Source of the DNA: Amphiscolops sp. MND2022
Taxonomy: Eukaryota
Assembly (NCBI GenBank): GCA_964187785.1
Contig: OZ076411.1
Location: 22,258,001-22,322,000, forward strand
DNA length: 64,000 nt
Direction of reading: 5' to 3'
Every line of letters starts with the position of its first letter. The stretch's first letter is position 1. This document shows, piece after piece, positions 6,274 through 51,463 of the stretch. A model generated the notes under the pieces. It saw nothing but the letters and a program-made list of their open reading frames with translations, ran no database searches and was not told the origin of the DNA. A program made the translations under genes and the position numbers.

Positions 6274-6371
6274 CTGAAAAACAATAATAGTACAAAAATG
6301 AATATATTCAAAGTAACTATTAGATGTTTTAGCAACTGAAACTTAGCTCGGAAGACTCAACTGTTTAATTG

Positions 6372-6769: not shown

Positions 6770-6909
6770 TAGCTACATTGAAAAAATAGCAACTTTTTCA
6801 CAAATATAGAGAATCAATTGAGACTACAGAGCTGCGGTATAAATTTGATAATAGCAAATTGTAGACTTTCTGTTGGGATAAAAAAACTTATTAAAAATGA
6901 AAATATTAC

Positions 6910-8193: not shown

Positions 8194-8399
8194 CTAAATG
8201 CAATTTGACCATTAGACAACCTTTTACCTTACTGATGGATATGAGACATTAATGGCATCAATTTTGTCGGCACATTTCGTGTGAACATAAATGCCCGACT
8301 TTGTGACTTTTCTCCAAACCACAGAACTAACACTGAAAGGTCCATTGTTCACTGAATTTCTCTAGGCCTTCCTACCTTACCAACAAGCAATCTCCGGTG

Positions 8400-9066: not shown

Positions 9067-9535
9067 TTTTTAGTTGGCGCTTTTAAAAAAAAAGAACCCA
9101 ACTATTACAGTCACTCGTTTCTTTTGTTTGTAAAACGTAACATACAAAACCGGACGAGACTAAAGGGTCCTCCTTTCAATTTTTTTCCAGCATTATGGGA
9201 TTTTTTCAAAAAAAATTAGGGCCTCCTCCAAATGGGTCCCCTTCAATTTTTTGACATTTTGCAACAGAATGGATGTTAAAAAATCCCAAAGAGCCCCCTT
9301 TTAAAATTTTCGACACTGAGACTGCTCAAAATTCTCTTTTGACGTTATATCCGAACTACATTGCGTTTACCATTCGTTCCAGCATGCTATATAAACTTCT
9401 GAAGCGTTTTCCGAGCACGAAAGGCACCTTTTCAGTGTTTTGGAATTTTTTCGTGAGTTTTTCATATCGTCCTGAGCCTATTTCAAAAGTTTGAGCCTTA
9501 CGTATATCGCCGACTAGGGACGTTCCCGTCTTGTT
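9067..9535 (+). mobile_element. Helentron/DINE-1-like non-autonomous element (copy in intron)
   Basis: 5' hairpin tttttagttggcgctttt...cccaacta, internal tacaaaaccggacgagactaaagggtcc, and 3' end cgccgactagggacgttcccgtcttgtt. Confidence 0.6.
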
Positions 9536-13640: not shown

Positions 13641-13918
13641 AAAATGTAACAAAAAATCCAAACAAAAACTAGTAAACAAAGTTCAGTCAGAGTTCAAAAC
13701 CATTCAAAAACCTACATTGAGAATATCATCAATGGTTTTCACACTCCGGAACATCTAATTCACTTTCAGGGAAAATGGTTGTACGAGGTTTTCCGAAATC
13801 AAATTCGGCCGCAAGTCACTGAAGGCTTAAACGGCAGAGCTGAAAAACTACTCTATCATGTTCGGTGGAAAACAAGCAGATCCTGCAATATTGGGGTTTG
13901 ATATGAAAAAGACCTGAC

Positions 13919-14097
13919 TGTCAGAACGCATTGAAGTCCCAAAGTTGCGGACGTTTTGGTCGTTCTCTTCCCTACTGTTCGTCACCTTCTCAGTAAGGGC
14001 TCTAACCATTCTCGTTAATTCGCAAATCTGCTTGTTCATTTAAAGAACCTTGGTTCTATCTTTAGTTTTTCATTATATCTCTCTCTCCCTCTCTCTC

Positions 14098-14128
<31 letters not shown>

Positions 14129-14183
14129 CTCTCTCTCTCGCTCTCGAGATCTCATTATCTTTTCATCATTCTCATTGAAAAAG
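13919..14183 (-). mobile_element. 3' part of a Gypsy-family LTR (same family as 31242-31560), split by the Copia insertion
   Basis: About 85-90% identical by eye to 31242-31450. Encodes MNKQICELTRMVRALTEKVTNSREENDQNVRNFGTSMRSD and ends ...TTCTGACA. No PBS follows. Confidence 0.8.
14078..14146. repeat. (CT)n/(AG)n microsatellite inside the LTR
   Basis: ctctctctccctctctctctctttctctttctc... tract that is absent from the homologous LTR near 31405. Confidence 0.9.
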
Positions 14184-17100
14184 TTTTTGGGCCTGAGCTC
14201 CTTCTGATCGAGGCTGAATGACAAAGAGTTGCAATGAGAGCTCATTGAATGCAGGCTTGGGTATGTTCTTGGTGAAGATATCAGCCAAGTTGTTTTGTGG
14301 AGACATAAGACAGTTGAATGCGTTTGTCCTCAACCAGTTGACGGATGAAGTGGTGTCGGGTTTCTATGTGTTTAGCACGTTTGTGAGCGACAGGGTTGGT
14401 GGCCAGTGCGAGTGCCCCTTGATTGTCACCACACAACAGAACAGGCGTGTCCACCGTCATCAGGCAGAAGATTGTGAGCAAGCCTTGCAAATAGACTGCT
14501 TCCTGTGCAGCCAAACCCAACGAAACATACTCTGCTTCACATGAGCTAAGTGCCACACACCCTTGCTTTTTGGACGCCCAAGAGACAACATTACCAAAAC
14601 GACTTCGTTTGAAGCAAAAACACGAAGTTGACTTGCGATCATCCTTGTCGGTGGCCCAATCGCAATTCGAAAAACCAAAACGTTCGAGATTTTCAGAGCG
14701 TTTATACACAAGAGACAGAGACTCGGTGCCCCTGAGAAAACGGAGAATGTGTTTCAATGCACATCAAAGGGCTTTACCGGGCTTTGACACAAATTACGCT
14801 AAAGTATAGACAGCAAAGCAAATATCGGGGCGGCTAACAACGGACAAATACATTAGGTTTCCAACTAAGCTACGATATTGTTTCTGTTCGCAAAACTCAA
14901 GTTAGTTTTCACTGCTTTCGATGGGGAAGTCCGATTTAGACTGTTTTGTAAGGGCTAAAGCTGGCGTACTGACTGGTTTACAAACAGACATATGGCTTTT
15001 GCGCAAAATGTCCTTTATATATGACCGCTGACTACGCGAAATGCGGCCGCGTGACTGTTCAACATTTCATCCCAAGACCCGAGTCATTTTCCCACGATCA
15101 TCCATTCTGAATGCATCGCTGAGTTTCGCCTTGAAATCATGCAGCTTTTTGTCGATGTCTGTAAAGTACAAATTGTCGTCGACTCAGACTAGTGCAAAAA
15201 ATTGGGAACCATTGGTCCCATCGCAACGAAAAAGACAATGATCCTCGGCAGACTGTATAAATTCGTTTTTCAAAAACCACAGGGTTAAGGAATTTTTCCT
15301 TTCCCTCCCTGCTTGTTTTAAACCATAAAGGCATTTTTAAAGCTTGCAATAAAGTGTTTCATCCTTAGCTCCCGCTTGTGCAAAGCTTTGTGGTTGTTCT
15401 ATGTAAATTTCATCACCTATCTAAGTTCGCATTGAGGAAAGCTGAACGGACGTTCAACTGAAAAACCAAAGTCAACCAAGACGCAGTGAGCGCAAACCAA
15501 ATCCTCATTGTACAAAGTTTGGCAGTAGGCGCAAAGGTTTCATCGTAATCGCTTCCAAAAACTTGCGAAAACCCTTGGGCTACGAAACGAGCCTTGAATT
15601 TCTCATTAGTTCCGTCGTCGTGTCGCTTACTTTTGAAAACCCACCGGCTTCCAATTGCTTTTCGGCCAAGGGCAAGCGGAGGAAGCACCCAGGTCTTGTT
15701 CTCGAATGAGCGCAATATATTTCTCTCGAGTAGCTTCGATCCATTCGCTTTTAAGCGATGACTTCATTGCTTAACGATAAGCTAGATTCTCATTGCTGTC
15801 ATCCGTTAAAAGAACGTAGTCGTCGAGATCCGCAGGAGGTTTGATAACTCTCCCACTTCGAGACCGCAAAAAAACACTACTTTCAATGGCATCAATGTTT
15901 TCAGATGAAACAACAGCACCGGGGGAAGGAGTTGTTTCAGTTTCGAAATCATTCAATGTTTCAGTCGGTAAAATAGAAACTGAAGACTTTTCGCAAAAAT
16001 ATTTCTGTGTTTCAGGCACAACTTGTTTCGGTGCCGACTTTTCGGTTACAAGTGCTCGGATGTTTTGACTTGGGTGCGCAGCGAAAGAGTCGAAAGAAGT
16101 CTCATCAAAGGACACGTTGCGAGAAAACGAAGTCTTTTCATCGTAAGGATTGTACAAAATGTATGCTTCGGAATCCTCAGAATAACCAACAAAAGCTTCT
16201 TTGGTGGCTTCATCGGAAAGTATGTCTTGATGCGTTTCATTGTGTTTGAAAGCAGTACATCCGAAAACTTTCAAATTGCAAAGGTCTGGTTTTTCACCAA
16301 AAAACATTTCGAAGGGCGTTTTACCTTTTGGTAAACTAACTGCGAGGCAACGGTTTGAAATGTAAAAAGCATTGTGTAAGGTCCAAACCCAAAATTCAAT
16401 GCCGAGTTTGGCTATTTTTAGCATGTAGCGAGCCATTTCGACTGTTGTTTGCCAGCGACGTTCACACACCATTTTGATGAGGCGAATAAGGGGCTGTTTG
16501 CTAACGTTTGTTTCGGTTTGATATACAAAAACTTCGGAGAGGCTTGGAATTGTACTCTCTTCCATTATTAGAACGGATTGCTCTGGGCGTTCCCACTGCG
16601 CACAAAAAACATTGAATTTATCCAGGCACTCCTTCGATTTGAGGAAACATACCGCTGAGTACCTACTGTAGCTATCCGTAAAAAAAATAGCGTGTCGGTT
16701 GTCACTAAGCGAATTAGTTGGCATTGGTTCCAAAAGGTCAGTGAAAACGAGATCAAACTTCGAAGATTTTCTTTTCTCCATTTTTCGCGATACTGGTTGC
16801 CGTCGTGACTTAGGAATATTGCATACTTCGCAACAACAAAGTTTATTCAAGCTCATTCCCGAATTATGCTGAGCCAAACGTTTCAGATTTTGAAATTGTT
16901 GTGACCAAGGCGATGATGCCATAGCACCGCTTCTTCGTTCTCGCCGGAAAAGGAACAAAGATCAAATGTCTTTCCTTTCGAAACGTAAATATTAGCGTGC
17001 TCTTCAACAGGAATGGTTGCTCTTCCATTGACAAAAATGCTCAGAGATTGTCCGAAGCTCACTTGAGTTTTGTCTCAACTTGGTAACGCTGATCAAGTTA

Positions 17101-18525
17101 ATGAGAATGATCAGGAAGAAAAAGACAGTCGGAAAATGTCAGGCAACGTTCGATCCCATCTTTGTCAAAAAGTAAAAGAGAAACTTTCCAACACCCTCAA
17201 CTTGCTAAAAAGACCCAATCGCTTTTTTACTTTGCGTCGTGTTTCTTCGCTAAAGTCGAAGAACAGAGTACGGTGAAAAAACATATGCGAGGAAGCACCA
17301 GAGTCGATGACCAAAGTGTGCTCCTTCACCTCGCATTTTTGTCTAGTGAATGCAGTCTCACTACCATCACGAAAAAAACTAAGTCCTCAGCTAGGGTTGA
17401 CGCTCCTGTCTCAGCACTTGACCTAGGGTTCAAAAGAGTCTTTTTCTCGAAACATTTATTCTCTTCATGGCCAAAACGCCTGCAAAAGTTGCTCTGAGAA
17501 ACACTACAAGTGGCTTGTATATGTCCACTTTTACCGCAACGCGTACACTTCCCAGTGAATTTTTCAGGTTTACGTGCGGAACTTTTCGCAACAGTTCCTT
17601 TGGATAACAAAGCAACATTGTCTTCGCTAGCTGTCGCAAATTGTAGGTTACGAGAACTTTCGAAATTTTTTAATGCCTCCTTCCTTTCCGCAAAAGACGC
17701 CTTATCTTTGGAAAATTCGTGCACAGTTTGAAGTAGTCGTATTCGGAAGGCAAACCCTTGAGAACTATTGAAGGTAACATGTTTTCAGAAACATTCTCAC
17801 CAGCGAGCTCCAATTGCTTACTCACATACTCCGCTCGAGTCAGGTAGTCAACCGTGCTTTCCGTGGGCTCCAATCGCAGGGTTGTAAACTTCTCCAATAG
17901 GTTCAGCAACCTCGGTGTTTCGGTGCTGTTGAAGTGGTTTCGCAGTAGTTACCGTGTCTTCGGACCATCACCCATGCAGCTGTTCGTCAGCATCAGGATA
18001 CTGCGGCTGTCGATACACTGTACCAAGTACGCTCCTTTTCGTACTTCTTGTCATTCGAACCAGCATCTGTTCCACTCAGCACATTCAGCAGCTTTTTCGT
18101 GAAACATACCCCCTCGAATCGCTCCTGCCACACAGCGAAGTCTTCTTCCTTGCCAGAGAACTGGAGATACTGCAAATGTCGATCCATCCCCCACAAAGTC
18201 CAAGCAGAAGCCCGAAACTGGCAGAAGGTAGTAACTGAAACAAACGTGTCAAACAGGAATTCCCACGAAGATAAGCTACACAGTTAACGGAAGCAAAACG
18301 GCGGTAACGGACGGCATAAAAAAGCAAAAATTGAGGATATCCGAGACGCAAAAAGCAAAAAATGAGAACGAGAATAAAGATCAGACGAGCATAGTTAGCG
18401 TAAGCAGAAAAATGTTGAAAAAAAACAAACTCACCAAAACGCTGGGCTCATAACCTGTTAGGGCCTGAATTCCTTCTGATCGTGGCTGGGTTGGCGGATT
18501 ATTGAAGATCGAATTTTGTCAAAAC
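14184..18525 (-). mobile_element. Ty1/Copia LTR retrotransposon, degraded (gag-PR-IN-RT-RNase H order)
   Basis: gag LQFSGKEEDFAVWQERF; UBN2-like LLEKFTTLRL..VLKGLPSEY; knuckle CTRCGKSGHIQATC; protease VIDSGASSHM (~17290-17320); integrase FTDSYSRYSAV..ERRWQT; RT WVFKSK..KARFVAQGFSQ..ETFAP; RNase H DWATDKDDRKSTS..SSCEAEY..HKRAKHIETRHHFIR. Integrase precedes RT. Confidence 0.93.
18441..18455 (-). promoter_or_regulatory. Copia primer-binding site of the half-tRNA-iMet type
   Basis: GGTTATGAGCCCAGC lies directly after the LTR end ...GGCCCTAACA. It closely matches the Drosophila copia PBS (GGTTATGGGCCCAG), which pairs with an internal part of tRNA-iMet. Confidence 0.75.
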
Positions 18526-18539
18526 TATACTTTGACAAT

Positions 18540-19212
18540 TTTGAAGAGGACAAACGCATTCAACTGTTTTATGTCTCCACAAAGAACAGTTTGGCTGATA
18601 TCTTCACCAAGAACTTACCCAAGCCTGCCTTTAATGAACTCTCATTGCTAGTCTTTGTCATTCAGCAACCTCAGTCATCAACTTAACCCTTGCCTCCCTC
18701 ACAACTCAATTTTTTTGCTTTATCCATTATTATTTTCCGCCCACATAAGTGAGGGAGGAAAATCATGATCTGTGACGCGTTTTTTTACTAATTGTGCCAA
18801 AACTTTTTTTACTCCATTTAGTAACACGCATTTACTCCATTTAGTGACACACATTTAGTTACTCCATCCAGTCACCATGGAGCAGTTGGCAGACACGAGG
18901 TCATGGATTCAAACCCGGGCTGGTGTTTGTTTTTTCATTCCCAGCCACCAACAAACCTCGGAAACTCTAATCGATCGGGGGTGTTAGAGACCGATGAAGG
19001 TCAAAAGACCATTGAAGGTCAAATATCTCAGACTATACCAGACTGAACTAATTTAGTTTATTATTATTGTTTGGAAACATGTACCTGTTATTTTTATCTT
19101 CAATTGACTGAATCACTTTCACAACACACATCTCAAAATAAAGTTTTGACAAAAATTTGTCATCAAAATTCCGACAACCCAGCCACGAGCAGAAGGAGTT
19201 CAGGCCCTAACA
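18540..19212 (+). mobile_element. Plus-strand 3' fragment of the same Copia family: RNase H tail, purine tract and 231-bp LTR (18982-19212)
   Basis: 18540-18665 is an inverted, roughly 88% identical copy of 14215-14330. ggggg precedes TGTTAGAGACC. The LTR ends ...AGGAGTTCAGGCCCTAACA, and its last ~70 bp match 18456-18525 in inverted orientation. Confidence 0.75.
18870..18930 (+). repeat. Possible tRNA-derived SINE head relic
   Basis: ttggcagacacgaggtcatggattcaaacccgggc has a B-box-like motif. A similar ttggcagac...ggttctaatccc occurs on the minus strand at ~4495-4545. No full cloverleaf. Confidence 0.3.
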
Positions 19213-19345
19213 AAAAACTCCCTGCGTAATGATCAGCATCAGTATTATCGTCTTCATCATCAACAAATCCATCTACTACTGGTTGTTCGTTTTGAATCTC
19301 CCTATTATTCTGGGATCTAGTATTAACCATGTTGATTGGTGGCAA
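19213..19345 (-). mobile_element. 5' part of the split Gypsy LTR ORF (MVNTRSQNNREIQNEQPVVDGFVDDEDD...DHYAG); the LTR probably extends further right
   Basis: Homologous to 31450-31560. It continues exactly where 14183 resumes, with a 5-bp TSD-like pair aaaag (14179-14183) / aaaaa (19213-19217). Confidence 0.8.
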
Positions 19346-22300
19346 TTGTTTGTTTGCTTTGCGTAGGCGGAGAGCAGGGACTTGTGCGTGCTGAAGAAAC
19401 AGTTACAGATTTAACGTCAACATTATTCGGAAGTAGGTATTAGCGGTAAAGTTGGTTTGTTCGGTAAAGTTGGTTTGTTTAAGCCACGTCAACCAATCGT
19501 GCGCTGATTTGAATGAAATTGTTTGTCAAGTTGTTGGATATTCGAGCGTAATACATCGGCAGTTGAAACGTGAAATTGCAGTAGGACTTAGTGTGTTATT
19601 TGACGAACTTGTTTGCTAATGGCAGACCATTCCCTTCATCGTTGTAACTACGTTACTTGTTATCCATACTTTCCTGAAATTGATCCTCGCGTTGATTTGT
19701 AAGGACATTTAGTTGGTCGTGTGGAGGACGTTGTAGGCTTTGGTATTTTGGATGGCTTGGAGAAAAAAGGAAATTGTTGTTGTTGTTCCTTTGGGATTTT
19801 GACTCTCGGTAACGACTATGAACTTCAGATGTGATTAGTTGCATCTGTTGAAAGAGTGTATAATAGTAGTTTTCAGAAAACCCAGTTGAGTTTTCTTTTG
19901 AATATTGTGTTGTGTTTCAATTTTTTGAGTGAGTAGTTGATCAGTCCACACATTCAAAACTGAAACTATAATCTTTTCTAGTCGTTGTTGGAAATACTTT
20001 GTTTAGCTTTGGTTAACGTCAGCGGATTGTCAATTTATTCCTCTGGGAGACGGCTCATGCTTAATCCAGACCACCATCCCCTTGATCCGGAGTTGATTTT
20101 TATAGTAACTCAAGCTGAGCATTGTCTTGTGGAAGTGGAAGAAATGTCGTCTGGTTCATATACCTCTGAGTTGGATCAGTTAGGCGACGATGTCGTTCCC
20201 GTCTCCAGTTGTTGCGTCTTAGCTGCTACCATTCCATCCCCTGTACGTTCCGGTTTGGGGAGCTTGTTGAAGGAATTCAGTAAGTACTCGTCTTTTAATC
20301 TCTGGGGTATGTCAGAGTAATCCGCTATGGAACTACCGTTGTGAGGCTTGGTATTTGATCAAGTTTTTAGGTCGTGAACTGAACGCTCTGTTCGGGATCA
20401 GTAGACTGTACTACTCATTTTTGCTGCCTCCTGTATCATTACCCGGGTATTGTGTTTGTCGTTGGTTAAGGGGTGGTCCTTCCAACTCTCAGTGTGTTTC
20501 TTATGTGTGTGTTCTGCTGTAGGAGAAGTCGTTTTATCCTCAATTGCGGATTTCCTAAAGTTGTATCACCATCATCGCCGTGTCGCCACTACAGATGAAA
20601 CGACGCTACAGGTATTCAGTCGTCTCGGTGGAGTCTTGTCGCCTCGAGTGGGTTAGTCTCTCACAATAATGTCTTACCGGAGCATGTCCTCCCTCTTATT
20701 TCTCTTGGTAGGAGTTGGTCAGGGCATGCTTGGAGTGTTGTGTTGTTTTTGACACGGGGTTTCTGTGTCGTGTGTCGTAAGTAGCATCTGTGTGTGTTAT
20801 CGGTATGGGTTTTTCGAAGGTACTGCCTCTTGCACTGAAGGTCTGACGAGTTACTGTGTGTCCTTTGAGGCGCGTGTGGAACATGATATCAATGGCTGTG
20901 TGAAGGCAGCCATTGAGTCAAGTATGGATCAGTTGGGCACTGTCGGAGCTATGGCCATGGAAGATGTTCTTCAGAAGATGAAAGTTGTATTGAAGGAAAT
21001 TGTCAGCTAAATGTCACCGCATGGGGCTGTTACGAGTAGCCCTGAATTGTCTGTTCCTCTGATGCCTGAAGTGTTTCCCGTAGTTGGGAAAACCATTTCC
21101 GTGTGTTCTGGGTCGCGTCGGTGCTAGCTCTGTGGTGCCAACTGGGTTTGGAGACAGGGGGTCAGTTTCGTCAGCCGTAGACCCTGAGGTCGCTCCGTTG
21201 TCTGTCGTCAGACCTGGTAAGAATCTCATAAGATCATGTGGGGGTTTTAGTTATAGGGTAGAGAAACGAAAAAAGGAAAAACATGAAGCACGAAGGAAAA
21301 CGTAATAGTTTGAACCTTACATATACTTTCTTGTTTTTTGTCTTTTTTGTTTCTGAGTAGAAGTTTGTGTCTTGGCCGGTTAATTCGGACGTTTGTTCTG
21401 TTTTGTTTCAGGACGTAAGAGCAAGATCAATACTATGAAACCGCCCTTTTCTGTGTCAGGAGTTGTCGGGCTCTTCGTGGGTTTCGCGGTCACAAATGTA
21501 ATGCTGACAACTGTGCACGCTGATTTATGTGTAAGGTGGACATCAGACAGCTGGACGTGGGCTACAAAGCTTATGGGGGCATTGGAAGGGGCTCGAGCAT
21601 ACGCGTCTCCAGCAAAGGTATCGCATTATGACACAGAGTCCGCTTCCAGACATGTCCTACCGTCCTGTGACTGTGGGGGAGGACCGTCGAATCAGGTTGG
21701 AGCGGATGGTCGAACCTCCAGTGTACCTGGAATCCTCGTTAGGATTGTCCGTCGACGAACGTATCACCATCGAGGAAGCTAGTGCTCAGGCCGAAAGTTC
21801 GCCCAACCGTGACTGCGGAAAGCGGTCCATATTTGTGGCTTTGTTCATTGGTGATCAGTTTTACCACCGTGTCGACGTTCGAGGCTGTGATGGTGCAACT
21901 AGAACATTGGGCAATGTCTATGCAGACTGAATTGATTATTAGTCATCGATTGTCTAATTATGAACAGTGTCAGGTTTGTATGACTTTGCCCTTTCCGTCT
22001 GGACATTTTTTGCTTGTTTTGGCTGATCTAGTAACTAGTGTGCTTCAGTAGTGTTTTCGGCAGATTGTGTTTACCATGTGCTTTATATTGCTTGATCTTT
22101 GTGTTTAGAGTCTCGTTCTGAACGGATTGTACCGTTTTGTCATTGAGCAATTTGGAGAGATGACTTCGCCTGGTAGTCGTGTGGGTCTGCGCATCTACCG
22201 TGATGGTTCTCTGTGCGTCAGATTGTCACAACGTCGGTTGTTCCAATGTCAAGTCAGTTTGTCTCGGAGCGGTGTCTGCTGGCGAAAATTGGGAGAGTCA

Positions 22301-24779
22301 TCTAACCCACGTTGTGGCTACAATTCTGAATTGTCTGGATGTGGTCTTGGGTGTAAGCATGGTGTGTGTGGAGGGTTGCTTGAATGTGGGTCGCGCTATA
22401 GCTAGTGCAGTTACACCAACTGAACCAGTGTGCGTCCGAGTTTACGATCTACAGTGGTTATGTGATGTCATGAGGTGGAAGTTCGTTAGTCAGTTTGGCG
22501 ACTTGGACCCCTTTGGAGTTCCGGACTTCTTGAAGTTTCAACTAAGTGGTGTCATCGCTGATCATCGCTTCGATAAAATGCCGGAACTCCTCCGTCGTGT
22601 TGGTTTTAGTTTGTTTGTGTCGTTTGTTATTTTTGCTCTTGGACTTTTGTTTCGTGAAGTGACTTTTCGAAATTCGAGTTTTGAGTGTGCTCTCTCTTTT
22701 TTTGTATATTGAGTGTGAGGTTTTAGATTTTCTTGGTAGGTTTCTTTGTTTTTCCATTTTAGTTCGTTCAAATTAAAGCGTTGGCTGTACCTGACTTGGC
22801 TCGCGTTTGTGCTCAACTGGTAGAGATGTGGGAAGACGTGGGACTGTATTTTGGAACGCATCGTCCTACGACACCCACAGAGATTAGGACACAGCCTACT
22901 TTCGACGTTCATCTCTTCGAGGATAGAATGTCACGATCAAGCTTTGCAGTCTTACAATATCTCTTGTCATTTCGTTAGTATATTTTATTGATTTTGTCTT
23001 CTGTTTGTCTTTCTCTTTATCGTGTGTAAATATTGTAAAGAAGGAAAAAATGAGTGTGTATTACCACGGTGTGGTGATGGTGATTTTGTGGATATTAGAT
23101 TCTGGCATCGGGCTTAATGACTGTATGTTTTAGTCGTCGGCAGGTGTCAGAAGACGTGTTCCACTAGTCATGACCGCGACTTCTATTTTCGTCGAGGTTT
23201 GGCAGCAGTTATCTGCTTCCGTCTATCTACTATCAGTGTAGTCTGCTTCTAACATGCCTGCAGCGTACGCTGTCGAGCAGTGAATGCGATGGAGTTGAAG
23301 CATGTAGATGACGAACGTTATCACGTGTTGTTCGTGCAGTACTTCCTCTTTGTTGTAAGCGCTCAGCAGCCTATTTTCTGCCGTGAGGTACAGCAGTTTG
23401 TGCGTGATTCTAGTGGCAGAGGATCAATGTGGGCAAGCTGACGGGTTGTGACTTACCCCTTTTGCTCCCTTCCTGGTTTAATAAGGATCTAAGGATAGAC
23501 TTGTGGACTCGTTGCTGTTATCTTGCATCGTTTTGTCCCGTCACAAGTTATTTATTGCGGACGCCGGAGACATTGCGTTACACCAGTATCATAAATCAGT
23601 CGTTACTCTTCTGTCAGAAGTGGCTTAGTCAGTCAGGGCAGTTACCCGTTGTCGATGATGTTTTTAAACTGTGGCTCTTTTATCCTTACTGGCAGCGGTG
23701 TCTTGAGTTATTAGATCTCTTCAACCAAGTCATGTGGGGCTCGTCGCGGAGCCGATATGGTATCTATTTCTTGGACCTGGGACGTAGTGTGTTAAAAGAG
23801 CAAAAGATGCCTTTTAGCCTGAACTTTGTACGCAGTTGGATGAGTTCAGGGTTTGTTGGACGGCCTAGAGGCTTGATGACTGGGATCATCTGTCACTGTG
23901 ATTCTACCGACTTACAAGTTTCGCGGCTTAGCGATAATAACCGGTGTCGACCATGGGACCATCTTCTCAAACGGGGTTTGCTGAAATTTATCAAGAATGT
24001 GATTGTGTGCTTGTTCATGGTGTTGTGGCTACTGAAGAAGTTGCTGTGGATGCTTTTCGGTCCTCAGTCTGTGCTCGACTAGACAGTTGGGAAAAGCAAC
24101 TCAGCAGCCCTTGTAATTCGACCTCGAAAGGGAACGTTCAGAAAATAGAACTGTCGGTGTTTTGCGAGTGGATTGCCGATAATACTACTGCTTCAACGTC
24201 GGCTAGCCAACAAGTGCCCCGCTTGCAGTGTAAGGTGGGGATTGCTTCAACTTCATGTGACCAGTCAAAGTCGGAAGTCGTTGGTTCCCAGTTTTCCCCG
24301 GCTATCGGAAATCGTAGTAGCCGTTCGGGTGGAGTGCCCTCCTAGTAGAAGAAGAGAAGTCCAGCTCTAGAGGGATTCAGTCGGAAACATCGAAGAACAA
24401 AACTATGTCGAGTCCTGCAAAGCGTACTTAGAGTTCGGACGAACGAACGAAATTGCGGGTTTTGGTCATGACTTCATCAGACTGCAGTTCGTCGGGCAAC
24501 GCGTATTTTGGAACGATACAGTTTGACAATGTTAAACTTGACTGTTTTGCAAGACAATGCTTTGCTGGTGTTTGCCTCACTAAGTTTACTCTTCTTATTG
24601 TGTTAGAAGGGTTCGTCTTTTGGTGTACATTTTTTGTTGTATGTTACATGTTGTTCGGTCTTTTGTTTTATATAATTTGGTTCATGTACTTAGTGGCCTC
24701 AATTCAGAAGGAGAGTGGAAGGTGCGGGTAGTACTTTCTGTACAGAACACTGCGTTAGAGTGTTAGCGTAATTCAATTT

Positions 24780-25249
24780 TGTTAACCAAACTGTTTTTTT
24801 TGTCACTCTGTGGCCTTTAATCAGTTGGTTACAAAATAGGTTACGTTATAATAATGTTTTGCTACTTTTTGCATGCAATTTATTTAGCTGCATCCGAAAA
24901 GTTGGAATGTTCGGCGCGATTACCATTTAAACGATCTCACCCACCAAGTGCCATTCAGCGTTGTTCAGTTGAAGTACATATGACACTGATGGAACTTGGT
25001 GGGTGGGTGGAGCCGCTCCGCCCCTTCAGATGACCTAAACAGTTTCGGTTTCCGCTTTTATACTCAGTACACGTGTATTCGAACGGGTGCTTACTAACTG
25101 CGTGTCGTGTTAGACTTGTCCATCAGTTTTTTTGCATGTACTTTTTGCAAAGGACGCGTTACTTATGACGTCATCATCGCTGATGTGTATCCTGCGACGT
25201 CACCAGTCGTGATGTGTGTCATTGACGTCTTTGACGTTTAGTCGTTACA
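24780..25249 (-). mobile_element. Possible solo LTR of another family
   Basis: Minus strand starts TGTAACG and ends GGTTAACA, with a TATAAAA and an ATTAAA inside. No TSD and no second copy were found. Confidence 0.3.
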
Positions 25250-26165
25250 TAATCTTAGGAGTTTCTCTTGCTTGTATACTCGGCGTTTTCTGCAGTTAGT
25301 TCGCTTTTGTAGTTCATCTTTTTGTGTTGTGACGACTGTATTTTACCGTCCTAAGCTTCGAGTTTTTTTCGTTCCTAGGGAATTTTTTATTGTCAAAAAA
25401 CTCTACAAAACTTACTGAGACTACACTTACCGCTGCTTTACCCACGCAGCAAGCTCCGAAATGCACGACCAACCACACAGACACGCTTTTAACGACGCAC
25501 CCACATAGTTAACACTATGATATCTCTGGGTGGGGGAGGGGGTTTAGGTTTAACAGATGTAACCTTATCCAACCAGCTGAGGCGTGATGAAATTCAGTTG
25601 AGCGCCTTTTGAGGCTCAGTTTTGTGTTTTTTCCGTTCAATAAGTTGAAGTACCAGGAAATGTAGGACATTTCCTTCTGAGTGTTGTTGGTAGTTGACAT
25701 TACATGAATTGCATAAATTATCAGCGTGTTACCTTTCAATTACATGTGTTCAACTTTTACGGAAGTTCTTTGACGACTAGAGGTATGCGTCGTTGTGGTC
25801 AGCATTAGATTCAATCAGTGCGTTTGCATGAGTGCGGCGACTTGTAACTCTGCGCATTTCCGCACTATTGAACGAAGAACGACGCAGAGTAGCTGTCGTC
25901 ACCTAGCATGGCGGGTAACTTCGGTATCTGTTTATAAATCGAATTGTGTTGGTTAATATGTTACATGTACTTTTTTAGAAAAGTGTAGGACACTTTCATT
26001 TGCGTTTCATGTGGACGTTGACTTTTAACTGAAGGTTTTAGTTGCATGTAAGTTCATTTATGCAGGTTATTTGTAATTTGTATTCTGAAACGAGGAGAAA
26101 CCTACGCATTATCAGCCAAGGATGAAAGAAGTGATTAATCGATAAGGGTTGTGAATGTCAGACAT

Positions 26166-29100
26166 TTACCTGGTGGTGCCAGCTATAGGTTTCTGTTTTG
26201 CATTTAAAGTGTAGAACACCTGTGTAGGACTTTTACATGAACTATAGTTGGCTATTCGTCCTGCATGAGCTTTAGTAAAGCGAGTTTGACTTGGAGTTCG
26301 TGAACGAGAAATTCTCGGTAAAAATTCGGGGTCAAGTTCGGACCGGAGGTTGTATCGGGTACTGTTGTTGCGCGATGTGACTTGTGTTCTAATACTAGTG
26401 TTTGGCAGTTCAAAGTTGTCTCTTGCAGCTTCATCAGGTTCGACCTGGTATTTGTCATTTGTGTTCGTTCTGACGACTGGATCGTCAAGTGGTCGCTCGA
26501 AACTTTGATGAGCATTCTCGGGGATCGGTTGTAACTGTGTTCGGTCAGTTAACCTTTGTGCGTGTTCGTAATATACGATGCCGTGTTCAGTATCGATTTC
26601 GTCTTGTTCAACTGTTTCGGGCGTTGGTTCGAAATGAATTGTTTGAGGAAAGTGGTAATTGAAGAGATCTCGATCGTCGACTGCGTCAGGGTTTGCGAAA
26701 AAGAGATTTGAGTCTTTTTCAAGGTCCGGTATGGATGCGTTCAGAGTGAAAGGACGGAGTCTCAACCTGTGTTTGAAAAGTGCCGACTTTCCTGAATATG
26801 TAATTAAAATTGGTCAAGACTTAACTACTTTGAAAGGGCATTCCCAATTGAAGTTGGTAAACGCATTTTTGTCTGAATGAGTTTTGATTTTTGGGATTGA
26901 GAGAGAAAGTGAAGTCGTTAACATTTAAAGGTAACGCCTGGGCCTTACAGTCGTAGTACTTTTTGTACTTGTGGTAAGCTTGGAGTTTGTTGTCGTTGAC
27001 TTGCTTGTACTTCGTTCACTTGGTCAACTAGTTTCGCTGGGTCGGTTTCTGTGGACTCGCACTTCACAGGGTTGCTGAAGTTCAGGTCCAGCGCGTTAAA
27101 CGGAATCCTACCGTGAAACACTCCGCATGGTGTACACTTGGTAATTGGTGGTAGGTAGTGTTGTGTGCCATAACTGACAGGTTAACGTACTTATCCCATT
27201 GGGGAGAGTCGGCTGAAACGTTGATTTTCAGAATCTGCTTCAGTCTTTGATGGAAGCGTTCCACCATCCCTATGGTCTGAGCATGCTTTACAGTCTCGTT
27301 TTCGATATTGTTTCCGGATGTTCTCAAAAATTCGGTCATGATGTTGGCGGTGAAGGCTGTGCCTTTGTCAGTTCTGATCGTCTTCGAGATGTACGCAGTT
27401 TCATGAGAGTATTCACTACAGATGCCGGGTCTAGTTTCCGGATCGGAACAGCAAACAGGTAGCGCGAGAAGTATTCGCACGCCGTCAGGATGTGCGTATA
27501 CTCGTTTGAACTCTGTAGTTCGCCTACCAGATAGATTTCAAGTACATCTTCAGAACAGCTGTGCTGGTCATAGACTTTTTCCATAAGGGGGTTTGTCGTT
27601 TTGGGTTGACAGGTTTGGCTTTCATGCATTCGATGTAGTTTCTTACATATTTTGAAACGTGTTCACTAGGCCTCGGTATGTAATAACGCTTGCGGAGTTC
27701 TACTAACATTTTTGATGCACCAGGGTGTCCCTGCATGGGGTCGCCATGCATCGTCCTGATTATGGGCGTAGTAGTTTCTGGAGGTACTTGAATTGGTTTG
27801 AGTAGAACTCTACCAGTGCTATCAAACAAAAGTTCCTGTACAAAACTGTTAGCCACTTCAAGACGATTTTTGTTTTTCACAAGCTTTTGAAAAAAGGAAC
27901 TACCAAAGTTAGCGTGGTTTGGCAGTTGTTCGCTGTTTACCAAGACGCGAACCATTTTTTGAACGTCCTGGTTACTCAACTGATCCTGGATTATTTGTTA
28001 ATCCCCTTGCGGGCATACCTGGTTTACCGTGTAGGGGTCGTGGCGTATGGTAAACGTCGTCAGCATGATGGCAGGAGCTTCGCTTGCAAGGACCGGCTCG
28101 AGGTGAAAAATGATGATCTGGATCATTTCGACACAGTCGTCGTCATGCCGATGTTGGTTGTTCATGAGGGAATGCAGCAAAGATTGCATTTGGGTGAAGT
28201 CGTCAGCGGTTTGGATTGCACCGGGTTGTTGTTCTTCGGGGGATTCGCCGCTTCAGGTCCTTGTTGTTCAGGGCAGTAGGTTTATTCGTCATCATCATGT
28301 TCCGGGATTTTGCTGCTAAGCCGACCTCAATGTAGCGGACAGGAATCTGTTCGTTGAGTTTCAGGTGGATACTGTCTTCTGACCTCTTTGGTTGATATCA
28401 AGCCTGAACAAGTAGTCTGCAGCTGGGTTTTCGACACCTGGCACGTGGGCAAGCACGAAATCAAACTGAAGCGCTTGGTCGCAAGAGTTCCACAGTTTGG
28501 GTGGGATTCAAATTGAGTGGAAAAACGGGTTAGAACTTTTTTGTCGGTCATCACTTTCTTTACTCCCAACAATAGGTGAGCAATTTCGCCGAAAGTGAAA
28601 TGCATTGCGAGGAATTTTTTGCATACATCGTTAGTGACATCTGGCCTTCAGTCAATCTTTGCAAACCCAATGCTTTGGGTGCATACGTCTTCTTCTTGCC
28701 GTCGTTGGTTTCTGTGTAATCTGCAACGAGAAGCACGTACCCCGCTGCGGGTTCGCTTGCATCACACATGATGACGAGTTGTTAGCCGGGCAATGGTAAT
28801 CTGAGTGACAGTTTCGCAGCTCGTGCCAAATACTCATTGATGTCGAAAATCGCATCTTTGTGTACTTGCGTCAGTGCTTCAGTCTTGACATCATTGAGGG
28901 GTCACTCTGGGGACGCACTAGGGTCCTGTAACAACTGATTGATCACGTGCTCTGTCTGGAAATTTGGAGATCAGGGTCGTTTGTTCTTTCGTCATTGGTT
29001 GTAGGTTTTTGGCTTGTTTTGGAGTCAGTACTTTGAATACCGCAATTGTCGTGTTTCGAGGAATTGCAATCGTGTCCAGACGGTCCAGGTGTTGGTAATC

Positions 29101-31241
29101 TGGACATGGTTCTGTTGTTCTCGTATCTCGGACATCGATGGAGACACTAGTAACTCTGTCTTGCGTTCAAAGGGCGGGAATGCATCTACTGTGCCTGTCA
29201 CTGTGCCGATATCCTTTTCTGCCATCACGGAATCGAAGACTTGTTGTCTGGGTGAGATGGTTGTCTTCTGTGATGCCCTGAGCTCCGACATTTGAAATTG
29301 TATTTCCCGATTTGGCGGTTTCAGTAGGAGAGTAATCTCTGGGAAACTTACGATGTTGTTTGCGAGGTCCATGGTCACAGAGTGTTTTTTAAAGAAGGAC
29401 ATTCCGATCAGGATATTCCCCATTGTAGGTAGAATCATGAATCTCTTTTCGAGAATGCTTCCCCCAAAAAAAAGCGAAGAAGGACTTGTGTTTGGACAGG
29501 TACGATACTCCCATTGGTAATTTGGACTTTGAAGTCAGGGGCTGGATACGCATCGAGTCGATCGGCTGGGTGTGCTTGGAGTATCCGTCTTAGTTCGTCT
29601 TCAGACATTGCACTCTGGATTGCTCCTGTGTCGAGCAATAGTTTGAACCATAGTTCTCATACTCCCTGAATTGGAGAGGGACGCAGAGCATCATGTTTCT
29701 TCTATCGAGTTGTAGAGTGGCGCTCAATGTTCTGATGTTCACTGGTTTCTTCGCGTAATTTTTCTTGTGGTTGTCCGGCATTGCGTTAGTTGAATGATCG
29801 TCCTGGTCAACCTCTGTGTATGTCTTCGTCTCTTGTTTTGGTTTCGAATTAGTGTGGGTCTCGTTCCGGGTACAGTCATCAGTCGTACAGGTGGCGTCAT
29901 GGCCAATGAAAAGAAGGATGTGGTAGGTATTGTGAGAAACCTTTTGTACGTAGTAATTTGTAGAGGGTTTAGTCTGTTTGTCAGGATCCTGCCGACATCC
30001 TGACGTCTTGGTAGTGTGATTGTAGTGAGTTTTAGTCTATTGTTCGCACTTTCAGTCTGGTTTGGTGGCGGATGACGTGGCATTACAAGTTTTTTGAATT
30101 GGAGTCAAATTCGTCCTTGTTCTCCCCGTCGTAACAGTTGTTGTGGTCCTCAGTTTGTGTATGCTGTGTTGTTTCCTGGGTGACTTGAGACATTGTACGA
30201 CTGTCTGAAATGTTGTCGGAACTCTCGGTTTTCTGTTGTTGACATTTTTTTGTTTTGTACATTCCGGTAAGCGAAAGCACCTGGGACTCTATCTCTGCAG
30301 TCTTGGGCAGAATGTCCAACCTTCCCGCAGATCTGGCAAACACATTTCGAGTTGTATCGTAGTTTGTCGTTTTGTTGTTGTTGGGCATTGTTGTTGTCTG
30401 ATTGTGGAGGTTGATTTTCGCAGTGTTTCCCTTGGCCTTATCTCTGATGCGTTTTTGGCATTCGATCCATTTGTGACCATTATAGTTGCAATATCTACAA
30501 TTGCTCTCCAACTTTCGCTATACTTCTTTGCATGTGTTCGGCGTGCCGTGTTATTGCTAGCAGGGACTTGTTGGTTCCCTTGTTATCTTGCACGGTAGTT
30601 CTGGATCTGGTTTAAGGGTTGAATGCCAGATGTGCCGGGTAATAGCTGAGCGTATTGGCAATGTCGTTGCACAAACGTCTTGATTTCCTCTATGGTTGCG
30701 TCGTGTTTGCCTGCCATGACCAATTCATTTTGTATCCGGATTGGTAATTTGGCAAACAAAAATGTCTCGGCTAAGACCTTGGATTATCTCCGTACGTCTG
30801 TTTTGCAAGCTTCTTGTACTTTGTGAGAAAGTCGGCAAACAACTCCGTTGTGGGGTCATACCTCATTTGACCGAATTTGTACTTCGACACCTCTTTGAGG
30901 TATTCTTTTGCATACTCTTTGTTAAATGTTTGTAGGACGTCCCGGAGTGTTGTTTCGGTTGTGATTTTCAGTGTTTGCCAGAATTCTACAGCGTCATCCC
31001 TGAGCAGACTTTGAAAATAGTTGAGTTTCTGCTTTTATGTCAGCTTATGCATGTGTGGGCGAAGATGAATTTTGAGTATGTGTTCGAATTCATTGTATTT
31101 CTCTCTGTTTCCACGGAAGAGAGGGACTTGAGAGAGGACAATACGTCCCCTTGTCTGGTGTACTGCAGGGGCTGAGGGGAGTTCTGCGGGGTGGGTGTAA
31201 ATTTGGAGTCGGGATTGAGTTCGCCCAGACTCCAGTCACCA
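26166..31241 (-). mobile_element. Ty3/Gypsy internal region, degraded: gag (2 CCHC), protease, RNase H, integrase; RT core deleted
   Basis: Knuckles CRYCNYNGHKWIEC and (shifted frame) CQICGKVGHSAQDC; protease LLDTGAIQS; RNase H CDASEPAAGYVLL..YAK..VMTDKK; integrase HGDPMQGHPG..C, ILTACEYFSRY, IRTDKGTAF, GMVERFHQRLK; post-IN VHRMRLRPF region. Confidence 0.9.
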
Positions 31242-31875
31242 TGTCAGAACGCATTGACGTCCCGAAGTTGTGGACGTTTTGGTCGTTCTCTTCCCTACTG
31301 TTCGTCACTTTCTAAGTAAGGTTTCTAACCATGCTCGTTAATTCGCCAATCTGCTTGTTCATTTCAAAAAACCTTTGTTCTATTCTGAGTCTTTCATGAT
31401 CTATCTGTTGAGATCTCATGGTCTCTTCATTATTCTCAATGAAATATCTCCCTGAGTAATGATCAGCAACACTAATATCGTCTTCATCATCAACAAATCC
31501 ATCCACGATTAGTTGTTCGTTTGGAATTTTCCTATTAAACTGGGATCTAGTATTAACCATGTTGAAAAGGGGAATGGTTCGTTTTTTACGTTGGATTGAA
31601 TTTAGGTTTAATGGTAGGAATGTATGTTTTGCGAAGATGAAGGTAGAGAACGAATTTTTTAGTGAAGGTGAACAGCACGTTTGAATTTCGCGATAACAAT
31701 TGGTGAACTGGTTAATTTCTATTTTGCAATAGCAATTTCATAAACTTCAGTCACGCGTTAGCAACGCCTAATTGAGTGCGTCTATTTGTTCGGAATTACT
31801 TCATGGTTCGTTAGACGACTGGTTACTTCGGTCGTCGCTATTCCTCATCGCAGCACTTTTGCACATGTTATCACA
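31242..31875 (-). mobile_element. 5' LTR of the Gypsy element, carrying the MVNTRSQ ORF; PBS TGGTGAC at 31235-31241
   Basis: The 3' end is defined by homology with 13919 (..TTCTGACA) followed by TGGTGACTGG. The 5' end (TGTGATAAC at 31875) is tentative. Confidence 0.7.
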
Positions 31876-32117
31876 ATACTTTAAGTCACTAAATTTTCAC
31901 TTTTTAGCACCGACTAAATTACGACTAAAGGTTATGGTGGTGGTTACAGCTACAAAACATTTACATAATACAAATCGATGCACCAATTGTTGATGTTGAC
32001 TGAATCCTTTGGTCAATGACGTGGACTTCTCTAAACGTACTAATCGGCACACTAAATATCGATGGTTATTGCTAATAAACGGAAAAATGAATATCACAAG
32101 TACTAATCGATGTTCTG

Positions 32118-32604
32118 TTTTTGTCTGCGCTTTTCTAGTGAAAAGTGCCCGACACTTACAGTGGCCAGTTTTTTTTCGTCAGACTACAATCTCACTCTGA
32201 TTGGGCCACTTTTCTTACAATCGAAACTACTAAAACTACTAGCATAAGGCCAAGTCCGGTCAGCGGAAATTAGTGCAAAAGGCCCCCCTTCATATTTTAC
32301 TATTTTACCGTAGCCTACAAAACCGGACGAGACTAAAGGGTCCCTCTTTTCAATTTTTTTTCGGCATTGTGCGACTTTTTTTCAAAATTTTTTTTATGTA
32401 TCAAAAGAGTCCCCCTTTCGAGTTTTTTGATATTTTGCAACAGCATATATGTTGATGAAGCCCAAAGGGTCCCCCCTTTTACATTTTTCGGCACCATGCC
32501 ACTATTTCTGAAAGAAAAAATATTCAAAATATTTTTTGAAAAAAATTTTTTTGCGCTTCTTGAGCCTTAGATATAGCGCCGACTTTAGACGTTCCCGTCT
32601 TGTT
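32118..32604 (+). mobile_element. Helentron/DINE-1-like non-autonomous element
   Basis: 5' gcgcttttctagtgaaaagtgcccgac hairpin, tacaaaaccggacgagactaaaggg, internal aaagggtccccc repeats, and 3' agcgccgactttagacgttcccgtcttgtt. Confidence 0.62.
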
Positions 32605-33254
32605 CATGTATCATATATTGAACTGCATGCAAAGTGTTTGGTAAAGTGATGACTGTATAAGCCGGTCGTTCTTTTGATTAATCTAACTTATAAAATGTTA
32701 GTTCGTATTGAACTGAAATTAAATTCCTTGACGACCAGGAAGCGTCGTCGTTTAATTCTATCATGCTATCTGGCATGACACTGATTGACCAGCTTTTCGT
32801 AAATTTCGGATTACTCGTGTTTTTCAGAACGAGCAACGTTTCCAAATAAAGAAAATGGGAATGCATTGGCGCATAGAACGTTTTTGTAAATTGGGATTGT
32901 TGAAACCAAATTGAATTTTACTGAACGGTGCAGAACAGATAGCAGAGTATGTCCAAATGTCGGTCCTTGAATACTGATAATACTTGACATGTAGCAGGTA
33001 TACAATGCAGTGCTAAACGAAGCACCTGAGAATGCTGAAGTTTTTATAACACATTGGAGTTTAATATCACAGTAGAAAATGTTAGGACGACGGTCAAAAA
33101 TATCTCGCGATTTTTTAAAAAAAGCGAAGGAACACTGGAAAAGATCGAATCAAAGATAGAGACGCTTTTGTGAGTGTCAGGGTCAAAAAATTGATTGTTA
33201 CCTAGTTCAACAACTGATTCCGCAAAAAAACCCTATGAGGGATTTTTAGAAGAG

Positions 33255-36200
33255 TGTGATAATCCTCCTCCTCAGAATCCTCATTTGAAAGGATTGTTTC
33301 GTCTAAGTTTGGTATGTTATGGTAGACTGGTCCAGCAGGATTCTTATGTTCATGCATGTCTGAGACCCTTAGGGGATAATCATCTTGATCTTTTGAATCT
33401 GAGTTTTCGTTATTTGATGCAAGAACTAATATAGACCGTTCATTTTCGAATCCCGAAGCTCTTGCAAAATGCATTTCATCTGACTGCTATTTCTGCCATT
33501 TTCGAACTTTGCTTGAGAGGAAAATGTTTTTGTTGTGTCAGGAACGAATTTGAATTAGTTACCTGAGGTTGGGAAATCAATTTTGTTTTTGAAACAAATG
33601 AACAGAGAAAACTGCTTTCACATTGATTGGGTTGAAAAAATAGCTAACTCCTCTCGGTGAAAGTTATTTTTGTTGTGTCTTTAATTTCCAGCTTTTTTCC
33701 TAAAAACTTATCAAAGCATGGCACCCATAACTATACTTGTCATCATTAACAAAAGAATAAATAACCTGACATCAAGTGACTTAGTTCTATTGATGACCCA
33801 AATATGTATATTACATGACATCCAACTTTCAAATGATAGGAAAAGGCTTAAAACCCTGGAAAACAGCAACATGACGTGCATACGTCACTAAAAATCCGCA
33901 TAACAACGTATAAACACTACAAGAAATGGAGTATAGCGTTCGTTGTGTGATCAAAAAAGAATGTTTCCGCATGATGACGTATATACATATTGTATTTTCC
34001 GCATAGTACCGCATAATGAAGATTAGGAATATGTGTACTGCAGCTTATGCGACACTATGATTTCCGCATAGTGACTCATAATGAAAATACGAAGTCCGCA
34101 TATTGACGTATTTACGCCACTATGTATTCCGTCTACTGCCGCATGTGTGGTGGTGATAATGCGCATACTGTCGTATATGCAGGGATGAAGTTCCCCGTAC
34201 TACCGCATGTGTGGTGGTGATATTCAGCATACTGTTGTATTTGCAGTGATGATATTCTGCATGCTCCTGCATAATCAGTCATAGTTTTCCGAATTTTAGC
34301 ATAAATTGAGCTCTCAAAAACTACGTGAACACGTATTGTGAGTCATATTAGTAGAAAAGAATGAATGAAATTTACGCTTGTGATACTCCAAATGTATAAC
34401 ACTTTCAAACGGAACCCAAGTTACAAATCAAATTAGCAAATATGAAGTTACATGGTTAAAATAAAAAGCTGGGGATTACTTCATAGTCCTTTTTGACCTT
34501 CAGAAAAATCATAATTTTCTGAGAGTCGGATTTGGCAGTTCTAGCTTACTTCAGAATAGCCCAATGCACCAGTACAACAGTGGGGTTGTGACAGGCCCGC
34601 ACTTTTAAAGGAAAACAGAACTGCCTAGATTACGTCGCAAAATGTTCTGGACCTTACATTCTTGTCCCTGATTGTTTTCCCGTCGTAGGCAGTTCAGATG
34701 AGATATTTGCCCCGGTACTTCCATTCTAGTACAGGGGTCCAGCACTTGAAAGGTGCGTGATCAGTTCAGTTCCTTTTGATTCTGGATTGCATTATAGTAT
34801 TGAAGAAAATTAAAATTAGAATGAGGTTTCTTCAATCCTGAGGAAATCCGACAGCGCTTGCATGTCAAGGAGAAATTTATTTTCTTGTCTACCAATCATC
34901 GACAAGGAAGTAACCTGACTTCACTTGACTTTCGTTTAGGTCATTTCCAATTTTGACAAATTTCTGTCATAAATTTTTCAATCACCGGTTTTTTGAAGTG
35001 GTTCGTTTTATGACTAGTCATTGATTGTAATTCTAAGCTGGCCAGGCTAGCATTGGATATGTCCCATTTTAATTCAGACAACATCCGGTTTTCATTTAGA
35101 GTATTTCCATATTTCCGAATTTCGTTTGAAGCATTTTGCAACACTTCGGGGTTCTAGTGGGAGAACCTTCCAATACTTGCGGTATGAAGTAGGTTCATGC
35201 TTCCGGATTTCATTTGAAGCATTTCTCAATGCTTCAGGATTCTTGAGGAAGCACTTTCGATACTTGCGGTATGAAGTACGTTCATGCTTGTGACTTTCAT
35301 TCGTCATTTTTGTTTTTGCACAAGAAATGAACGAAATTTTGTTTAGGTTGAAATCGAGGTTGCTCAAAAAATCGCCGGGACTATCGCCCACTAGAAGATG
35401 TGTTCATTCTCTGACGTGCCAGCCACTACAGTTTTTTGCCAATATCCATAACTTATTGAGTCCCTCAGTACTGCTTAATTTATTGCATCAATACTCAACG
35501 AGAGAAGTCAGAGAAGTTCAATTTGTGTCAGTTGTTTTTCAAACTGTATACGTTTGCGTTGTATGGGTAAGGATTGGAGCAAAAGTTGTAATTTCTAGCA
35601 TTTATTCGATACCGTCTTGTTGCGTTCTTATTGTGATGAGGTATTTTAGAGCTTTCCGGGTCGTTTTTTGTTTTTGCGGTTTTCTCTTCTTGTCCTAATG
35701 AGTTTTTGGTATAACTAAGTCACCATCATCTGTTTGTTGGTTTTTTCATTAAAGTTTTTCCTTTTGGGTTCGGTGGGTTGTTCCACTGGGCTCCCCCGCT
35801 GTTTTTCGAACTGACGAAGGAGGGAGGGTTTCTGTTTTTGGATGAATATATAATGGTTGAGAGTTCTTGTTGTCCAGTTTCTTTATTACTATTGCGATTT
35901 GGTTATTTGAGTCAAGCTGTTTAGTTGATGAGTTTCGGCTTGCGCGGGATCCTGCCCTGTGGTCTAAATTTTGGGGATTTTGCGAAAGTCGTCTATGGAG
36001 TTGTCGGTTGGCTCCTGTCACCATGTGATAATCCTGAGTGATAAATCCTCCTCAGAGTCCTCAATTGAAACGATTGTTTCGTCTAAGTTTGGTATGTTAT
36101 GGTGAACTGGTCTAGCAGGATTCCTAAGTTCATGCATTTCTGAGGCCCATCTGCTGAATCTGAGTTTTCGTTATTTGATGCGTGAACTATAGACCGTTCA

Positions 36201-51150: not shown

Positions 51151-51463
51151 TTATGCGAGTGAGTAGTTTTTCAATTATTCTCGAATTCGGTTAATGTAAA
51201 GTTTTAACTGTATTTCCAAGTTAACAGGTATGATCGTGTCAGAGCCTTCTGGGGTGGTCTAAATATTCCCCAGGAAGGATGACATCCCAAATTAAAGGCA
51301 TCATGTTGCTGTAAATAAAATCTGAATAACTAAAAATAGAGTCTAAGTATCGCCCCATGACGCAATTTAACTCCAAAAATAGCATCAATGCCTAGCGGCT
51401 ACAAATGTGTACAAGGCCTGTTAGGCTTTCTCAACATAACACTATTGATAAAAGTCAAATGCA

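Follow-up and report, generated by a model that had tools for sequence, protein, structure and literature searches.

A seven-exon antisense gene with likeness to hAT transposases in a Ty3/Gypsy retrotransposon lineage of Amphiscolops

The DNA analysed here, referred to as the window, is a stretch of 64,000 nucleotides from Amphiscolops sp. MND2022 (assembly GCA_964187785.1, contig OZ076411.1, positions 22,258,001 to 22,322,000), and holds on its minus strand a decayed Ty3/Gypsy long terminal repeat (LTR) retrotransposon. Between pol and the 3' LTR of this element, in antisense orientation, lie coding blocks that by their sequence signals form one gene with seven exons and six GT-AG introns. 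Searches of the 1.07-Gb assembly holding the window established the exon-intron layout in the DNA, the linkage to pol, the coding constraint, and exchange of this gene cassette between pol lineages. On the sequence evidence the cassette is almost certainly a real spliced gene. We propose, with moderate confidence in the explanation as a whole, that it is a gene under purifying selection, likely derived from a hAT transposase that has lost its cutting activity, and that its product would be a DNA-binding helper of element expression.

An earlier note, made from the letters of the window, had pointed out plus-strand coding-like blocks with AT- or T-rich spacers, a splice donor at 21217 and an acceptor ending at 21411, all of which are present (Table 1). 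The blocks are indeed coding, with boundaries that have to be redrawn: 19985-21010 consists of exons 1-3 with two introns, 21560-22560 of exons 4 and 5 plus an intron, and 22781-22978 is exon 6 rather than a separate open reading frame (ORF). The stop following KEIVS (21008-21010), taken as the end of the first block, sits within exon 3 where relatives read on, and hence reflects decay. The long ORFs exist as well, their sizes counted from stop to stop being 222 residues (23414-24082) and 134 residues (23941-24345). Exons 1, 2 and 6 are open and exons 3, 4, 5 and 7 are broken; all six introns run from GT to AG and are sited where those of relatives sit. Exons 1 and 3-7 match their counterparts in the related locus L056 at 34-62%, and exon 2 has no significant protein match to L056. 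The window copy is dead and belongs to an old subfamily of a cassette that is widespread.

Table 1. Features of the Gypsy element and its antisense cassette in the window
Feature	Position	Strand	Remarks
Last 3' LTR piece	13919..14082	-	beyond Copia-type fragments; 88% to 5' LTR
3' LTR remnant	19212..19367	-	gag-start part; 83% to 5' LTR
Exon 1	20057..20279	+	predicted; ATG at 20057, phase-1 donor GTAAGT; open; 34% to L056 exon 1, E 6e-7
Exon 2	20523..20651	+	predicted; 129 nt, AG/GT, open; assigned by position, length and phase
Exon 3	20820..21216	+	predicted; premature stop and frameshift; ends at donor 21217
Intron 3	21217..21411	+	predicted; 195 nt, GC 0.35; donor CTG/GTAAGA, acceptor ttttgtttcag/G
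Exon 4	21412..21973	+	predicted; BED-like C-x2-C..H..H region; frameshifts; 55-62% to L056 exon 4
Exon 5	22109..22598	+	predicted RNase H-like domain; one frameshift
Exon 6	22763..22973	+	predicted; open; 211 nt, the same length as in L056; conserved W
Exon 7	23134..24536 (3' end approximate)	+	predicted; helical region, W-x2-YP motif, low-complexity basic tail; stops and frameshifts
Island A	25157..25223		unit of about 29 bp, present as two direct copies that both contain the palindromes GACGTC and ATCA-n-TGAT; strand not set
Island B	25465..25524		conserved; weak G-U-rich hairpin on gag-pol strand; strand not set
Decayed gag-pol	26166..31560	-	gag ATG at 31560, inside 5' LTR; end of pol at 26166
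5' LTR	31242..32780	-	ends TG..CA; repeat of about 0.5 kb inserted near 32116-32600

A genome search with the antisense region yielded 67 matches from 40 of 694 candidates. In each of seven neighbourhoods part of the region is present in colinear order at 65-78% identity, with pol directly behind it in four, an LTR in front in five, and neither within 30 kb in one. Younger subfamilies were reached through weaker matches to the donor and to the block after the acceptor. In L056 the seven exons measure 241, 126, 390, 563, 489, 211 and 1,259 nt, and the six GT-AG introns are 150-227 nt long with a lower GC content than the exons; joined in compatible phase, the exons form a frame of 1,092 codons without a stop. 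Two distant exon-7 relatives used as queries gave at least 100 and at least 135 matches, most without internal stops, and 40 copies were taken at even steps down the exon-7 match lists, two rows being substituted. This sample was gathered via the cassette, and therefore speaks for cassette copies and not for the share of Gypsy relatives that carry one. All 40 copies contain exons 4, 5 and 7 in the right order, 39 contain exon 6, 38 exon 3 and 36 exon 1, L056 exon 2 being too diverged to match. The linkage to pol was confirmed by integrase downstream on the opposite strand in 38 of the 40, and the two copies without integrase still match non-coding parts of other copies. Scored only on alignments that reach the exon end, splice borders carry AG in 139 of 142 and GT in 148 of 149 cases (background 6.5% and 9.6%). 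Exons 4-7 are stop-free in single frames in at least 16 of the 40 copies, and the cassette copies occupy one place in the element. Some loci contain two cassettes: in L065 two diverged copies follow one another in tandem, in L057 exons 1-4 are duplicated in tandem, and L054 and L103 have inverted pairs. One sequencing run of unrecorded type gave low-depth contigs across intron borders and no exon joints on L056, and is uninformative on splicing.

Comparison of L056 with L063 gave a nonsynonymous divergence (pN) of 0.106 and a synonymous divergence (pS) of 0.735 over 1,086 codons, with 171, 87 and 575 substitutions at the three codon positions; among eight pairs of younger copies, pN ranges from 0.075 to 0.155 and pS from 0.66 to 0.83. 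The ratio of nonsynonymous to synonymous substitution rates (dN/dS) amounts to 0.03-0.06 in the three unsaturated younger pairs, compared to 0.97-1.78 when the frame is shifted or the opposite strand is read. Coding constraint across copies is shown by these comparisons. For the window copy itself dN/dS is 0.15 against L047, 0.29 against L038 and 0.61 against L041 (the pol rows of these pairs, of 14-17 codons only, were disregarded), values which fit old constraint overlaid by decay, as expected. The reading of the region as the decayed, possibly spliced accessory cassette of a large Gypsy lineage, in antisense orientation, is therefore upheld by pol linkage, coding constraint and conserved splice sites, with splicing inferred from DNA.

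Among 52 loci with both parts, the cassette tree and the integrase tree conflict. The cassettes of L121-123 are 75% identical to that of L126 and 43-44% to that of L056, whereas their integrase is 76% identical to that of L056 and 65-66% to that of L126. L106 and L111 have an identical integrase segment and cassettes that are 74% alike. Approximately unbiased (AU) tests on 16 of the 52 rows, with groups that were named once the other tree was known, reject each gene's tree when it is constrained to the grouping of the other (p 0.0003 and 2e-49). Moreover, synonymous divergence of the cassette is often far larger than that of pol in the same pair (e.g. pS 0.73 versus 0.06). The cassette has moved between pol lineages. 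This switching of pol backbones and the excess synonymous divergence, together with the abundance of hAT elements in this genome (150 scored matches among 2,215 candidates), would also suit a parasite that hitch-hikes on the retrotransposon, as an immobile transposase-derived gene kept for its own protein in trans or a restriction factor against competing hATs, with no role in Gypsy expression. However, no mobility of its own was seen and the copies lie at one element site, so that constraint must come via the success of the carrier; we consider such a gene an unlikely explanation.

The cassette probably originates from a hAT transposase, judging from its sequence. Exons 4-7 align end to end with hAT transposases, short of significance (hhalign P=0.074), and four landmarks, a C2H2 BED-like finger, an RNase H-like domain, a helical region and a C-terminal W-x2-YP motif, occur in hAT order and spacing. 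The C-x2-C..H..H residues of the finger are nearly invariant (zf-BED best E 0.047, below the cut-off; hhalign P 0.021; model pLDDT about 40-57). Exon 5 is predicted to adopt an RNase H-like fold, its structure matches pointing to the RNase H-like superfamily only. In the C-terminal module, W605 (57 of 57 rows) and P609 (56 of 57) fall on the WW..YP motif of hATs, PF05699 giving no Pfam match in 66 rows. Exon 7 ends in a basic low-complexity tail. Hidden Markov models of the cassette searched against 443 ORFs of 30 hAT loci gave a best E of 0.019, on the finger region. Capture from a host gene or from another RNase H-fold element (Mutator, P, Kolobok or a domesticated ZBED-type gene), instead of directly from a hAT, would agree with structure matches that reach the superfamily only, and six introns would suit a host gene equally well. 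The order and spacing of the landmarks argue for the hAT source, as do 193 relatives found among 1.84 billion representatives, which are unnamed proteins and of which all 14 inspected were cassette-like; we regard the other sources as rather improbable. Far more diverged exon-7 relatives in public assemblies (P0183, P0250, P0253, P0269 and P0275; 17-25% identity) could form a bridge to the donor transposon.

Two hAT motifs, the DDE triad and CxxH, are not fully conserved in the cassette protein: the catalytic DDE positions are not invariant across young subfamilies, with a register uncertain by one residue at the third, and the CxxH-equivalent columns contain no conserved C or H. The protein is probably catalytically dead, as are the domesticated hAT derivatives known as ZBED-type genes. 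An active nuclease with an altered triad could be imagined, since two or three candidate positions have D or E as their most frequent residue, and L056 carries D at every one of the three; the lack of any invariant triad position across young subfamilies and of conserved C or H in the CxxH-equivalent columns makes this highly improbable. Pfam, a PDB sequence search and the ESM Atlas gave nothing significant for the cassette protein, and a DUF4371 search of the genome had no match anywhere, its controls being likewise unmatched. No inverted repeat of at least 40 nt was found within 19640-26160, shorter ones not having been searched.

Several observations weigh against a hAT-derived, catalytically inactive regulator. 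No hAT test is significant, including the hhalign comparison of exons 4-7 (P=0.074), and the own-genome hAT alignment, which is shallow, gave hhalign E values of 0.54-0.92. There was no Foldseek match at E<=0.001, by Z Hermes stands level with actin-like ATPases, pelota and ribosomal proteins, and for exon 7 the model is too poor for use (pLDDT 39) and its Foldseek search uninformative. No Pfam family scored above the cut-off in scans of 19, 27, 63 and 66 sequences, and no close relative of the cassette among autonomous DNA transposons turned up in the genome searches. The third catalytic position lies beside a gap, and with a shift of one, 43 of 57 rows would have D or E there; with D at all three positions in L056, residual activity is conceivable. 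The comparison of the window copy with L041, its nearest copy, is near neutral, as fits decay after insertion, and selection between copies reflects the history of the element. The regulator function is proposed by analogy.

Two non-coding islands between cassette and pol are conserved across subfamilies with proteins only about 40% alike. Of 56 loci, 50 match island A at E<0.5 and 41-42 still do so at E<1e-3; island B is matched in 50 of the 56 as well. L137 has a single unit of the doubled repeat of island A. BED fingers are described as binding short, often palindromic DNA repeats (PMC10368747), and island A is a candidate protein-binding site, either for the cassette protein or for a host bZIP factor. 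Three of 100 column shuffles were as stable as the island B hairpin, which is weak. The hairpin score of island A (0 of 100 column shuffles) was discounted, as it follows from the repeated palindrome and the control is weak. An Rfam search gave no match at E<=0.1, and a tRNA search none. Islands that could be RNA elements and the basic tail of exon 7 would fit a role after transcription or in integration (binding RNA or cDNA of the element, transport into or out of the nucleus, or choice of the target site), comparable to that of retroviral accessory proteins or CERV of Cer1, and such a role has been proposed for plant antisense ORFs (PMC7264820). As a direct repeat of palindromes, however, island A is more like a DNA site; in addition there is no Rfam match, and the short repeats that BED fingers bind are DNA (PMC10368747), so we hold this role to have a small chance.

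For the favoured hAT-derived regulator we propose the following history. An intron-containing hAT transposase gene would have been inserted backwards behind pol in an ancestor. Its ends would have disappeared along with an invariant active site, while the gene was retained for DNA binding. Its introns would survive reverse transcription because they are antisense to the packaged RNA, in which the spliceosome would see no introns. The gene would be transcribed from a promoter in or beside the 3' LTR, cassettes would be exchanged through template switching between co-packaged RNAs, and the BED-like finger would bind short repeats within the element, island A being the first candidate. By analogy, the protein may be a DNA-binding activator or anti-silencer, a function that we put at slightly below an even chance. 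More tentatively still, the lineage may have domesticated the whole intron-containing transposase gene as its own sequence-specific activator or anti-silencer, which binds a conserved repeated site within the element, keeps its introns thanks to its antisense position and passes between pol lineages as interchangeable old alleles. The earlier note had listed findings that would undermine its own reading, namely blocks occurring independently of this Gypsy family, blocks matching separately inserted known genes, or an absence of coding constraint. None was encountered outright, although the cassette probably does go back to the ancient insertion of a different kind of transposon (hAT).

The carrier element was compared with a young relative (L141) of 15.2 kb, which has identical 1,101-bp LTRs, a 5-bp target duplication, a primer-binding site (PBS), a polypurine tract (PPT) and the pol order PR-RT-RH-IN (Pfam). 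The window pol is colinear with its pol, the PBS-like TGGTGACTGGAG adjoins the 5' LTR, and the stretch from pol to the 3' LTR forms a 3' region of 6.8 kb. The flanks CTGAC (13914-13918) and CTGAT (32781-32785) agree at four of five positions and are compatible with a 5-bp target duplication. Most of the 3' LTR length is gone, and the remainder is split by Copia-type fragments; the sequence at 19213-19345, rightly called LTR in the earlier note, holds the gag-start part only, the other 0.7 kb or so of the 3' LTR being lost and the PPT having gone along with the deleted part. Between pol and the 3' LTR there is no sense ORF of at least 150 residues in the young relative and none of at least 170 residues in the window; the element is an env-less Gypsy and not errantivirus-like. 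The gag start and about 105-107 codons lie inside the LTR in both (window 31242-31560, minus strand), so that gag reads through the LTR end and the PBS, and every 3' LTR carries a gag start. The segment 24915-26160, at which many copies end, was rejected as an LTR, since the window copy has a small deletion at this edge, beyond which homology continues into pol. The Copia-type fragments (14100-19212) contain inverted segments (14213-14331 versus 18546-18666, and 18456-18535 versus 19133-19212), implying that the insert was rearranged.

Elsewhere in the window, a 943-bp direct repeat (92% identity; 33256-34198 and 36038-36954, 2.76 kb apart) lies just outside the 5' LTR, and a dispersed repeat family occurs at 32116-32600 (inside the 5' LTR), 60288-60982, 9134-9346 and 6375-6768. 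BEL/Pao-like remains extend over 38000-52300 (plus strand), with a DUF1759 match at 40050-40757; a tandem duplication of about 3 kb (43834-46421 versus 46837-49416, 97-100% identity) is either recent or an assembly artefact. At 885-8248 (minus strand), ORFs of 398, 441 and 474 residues without a Pfam match, one Q/A/P-rich and one R/G/D/N-rich, are probably host-gene exons.

Antisense ORFs between pol and the 3' LTR have been described in Grande, RIRE2, Retand and Boty, with origin and function stated as open (PMC7264820, PMC11963269, PMC8365987). Those of plant Ty3/Gypsy elements, termed aORF-3R, include maize Grande gene23, rice RIRE2 and Retand TRP28/Transposase_28 PF04195 (PMC7264820, PMC11963269), and the cassette, as an antisense ORF at this place that is kept in cassette copies, belongs to the same category. 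It resembles plant aORF-3R, as described in these sources, in position, orientation, presence in most copies, gag-pol-like conservation and a proposed DNA-binding regulatory role, and we also count the pol-to-LTR distance of 2.9-6.6 kb in plants as a likeness. It differs in its size of about 1,090 residues in seven exons; the word 'intron' is absent from the main text of PMC11963269, and PF04195 had no match in any of the 19, 27, 63 and 66 cassette sequences scanned. The plant ORFs are reported to have no likeness to other transposons (PMC7264820, PMC11963269), whereas the cassette resembles, below significance, a whole hAT transposase. The brtn gene of Boty-like Gypsy elements (Botrytis, Sclerotinia) is likewise an antisense extra gene outside plants, and is fungal; it was compared by description only (PMC7264820, PMC8365987). 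With hAT transposases such as Hermes (PMC10368747) the cassette shares the N-terminal C2H2 BED-like, RNase H-like, helical and W-x2-YP parts in the same order; unlike them it has neither an invariant DDE nor CxxH, no terminal inverted repeats were noticed, it is borne by a retrotransposon, and the sequence likeness is sub-significant. In plants, TnpA is reported to derive from a transposase and to activate cognate copies of DNA transposons, and loss of catalytic residues is a described route (bioRxiv 10.64898/2026.08.24.746577). Like VANC and TnpA the cassette product would be an accessory factor encoded by the element itself; these serve DNA transposons of their own superfamily, while the donor and carrier of the cassette would differ in class, and 'retrotransposon' and 'LTR' are absent from the text of that source. 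Other extra ORFs (PMC6431247, PMC13547354) are, as described there, none of the cassette's kind. A literature search, thin on subscription journals, Repbase and supplements, found no report of a Gypsy antisense gene that has several introns and resembles a transposase. The claim of an undescribed system must accordingly be narrowed, as the antisense layout is already published for plant and fungal Gypsy elements (PMC7264820), and it is the six introns, the likely transposase origin and the swapping that were not found published.

An origin of antisense ORFs from nested transposons has been judged unsupported for lack of likeness, according to the text of PMC7264820 and PMC11963269. The cassette family provides a testable case of such an origin, in which one class of mobile element would have tamed the enzyme of another. 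The family offers identical young copies, many alleles that have diverged and a candidate binding site, so that expression, binding and the effect on silencing are directly testable. The family also indicates that a retroelement can retain six spliceosomal introns over a long history of reverse transcription.
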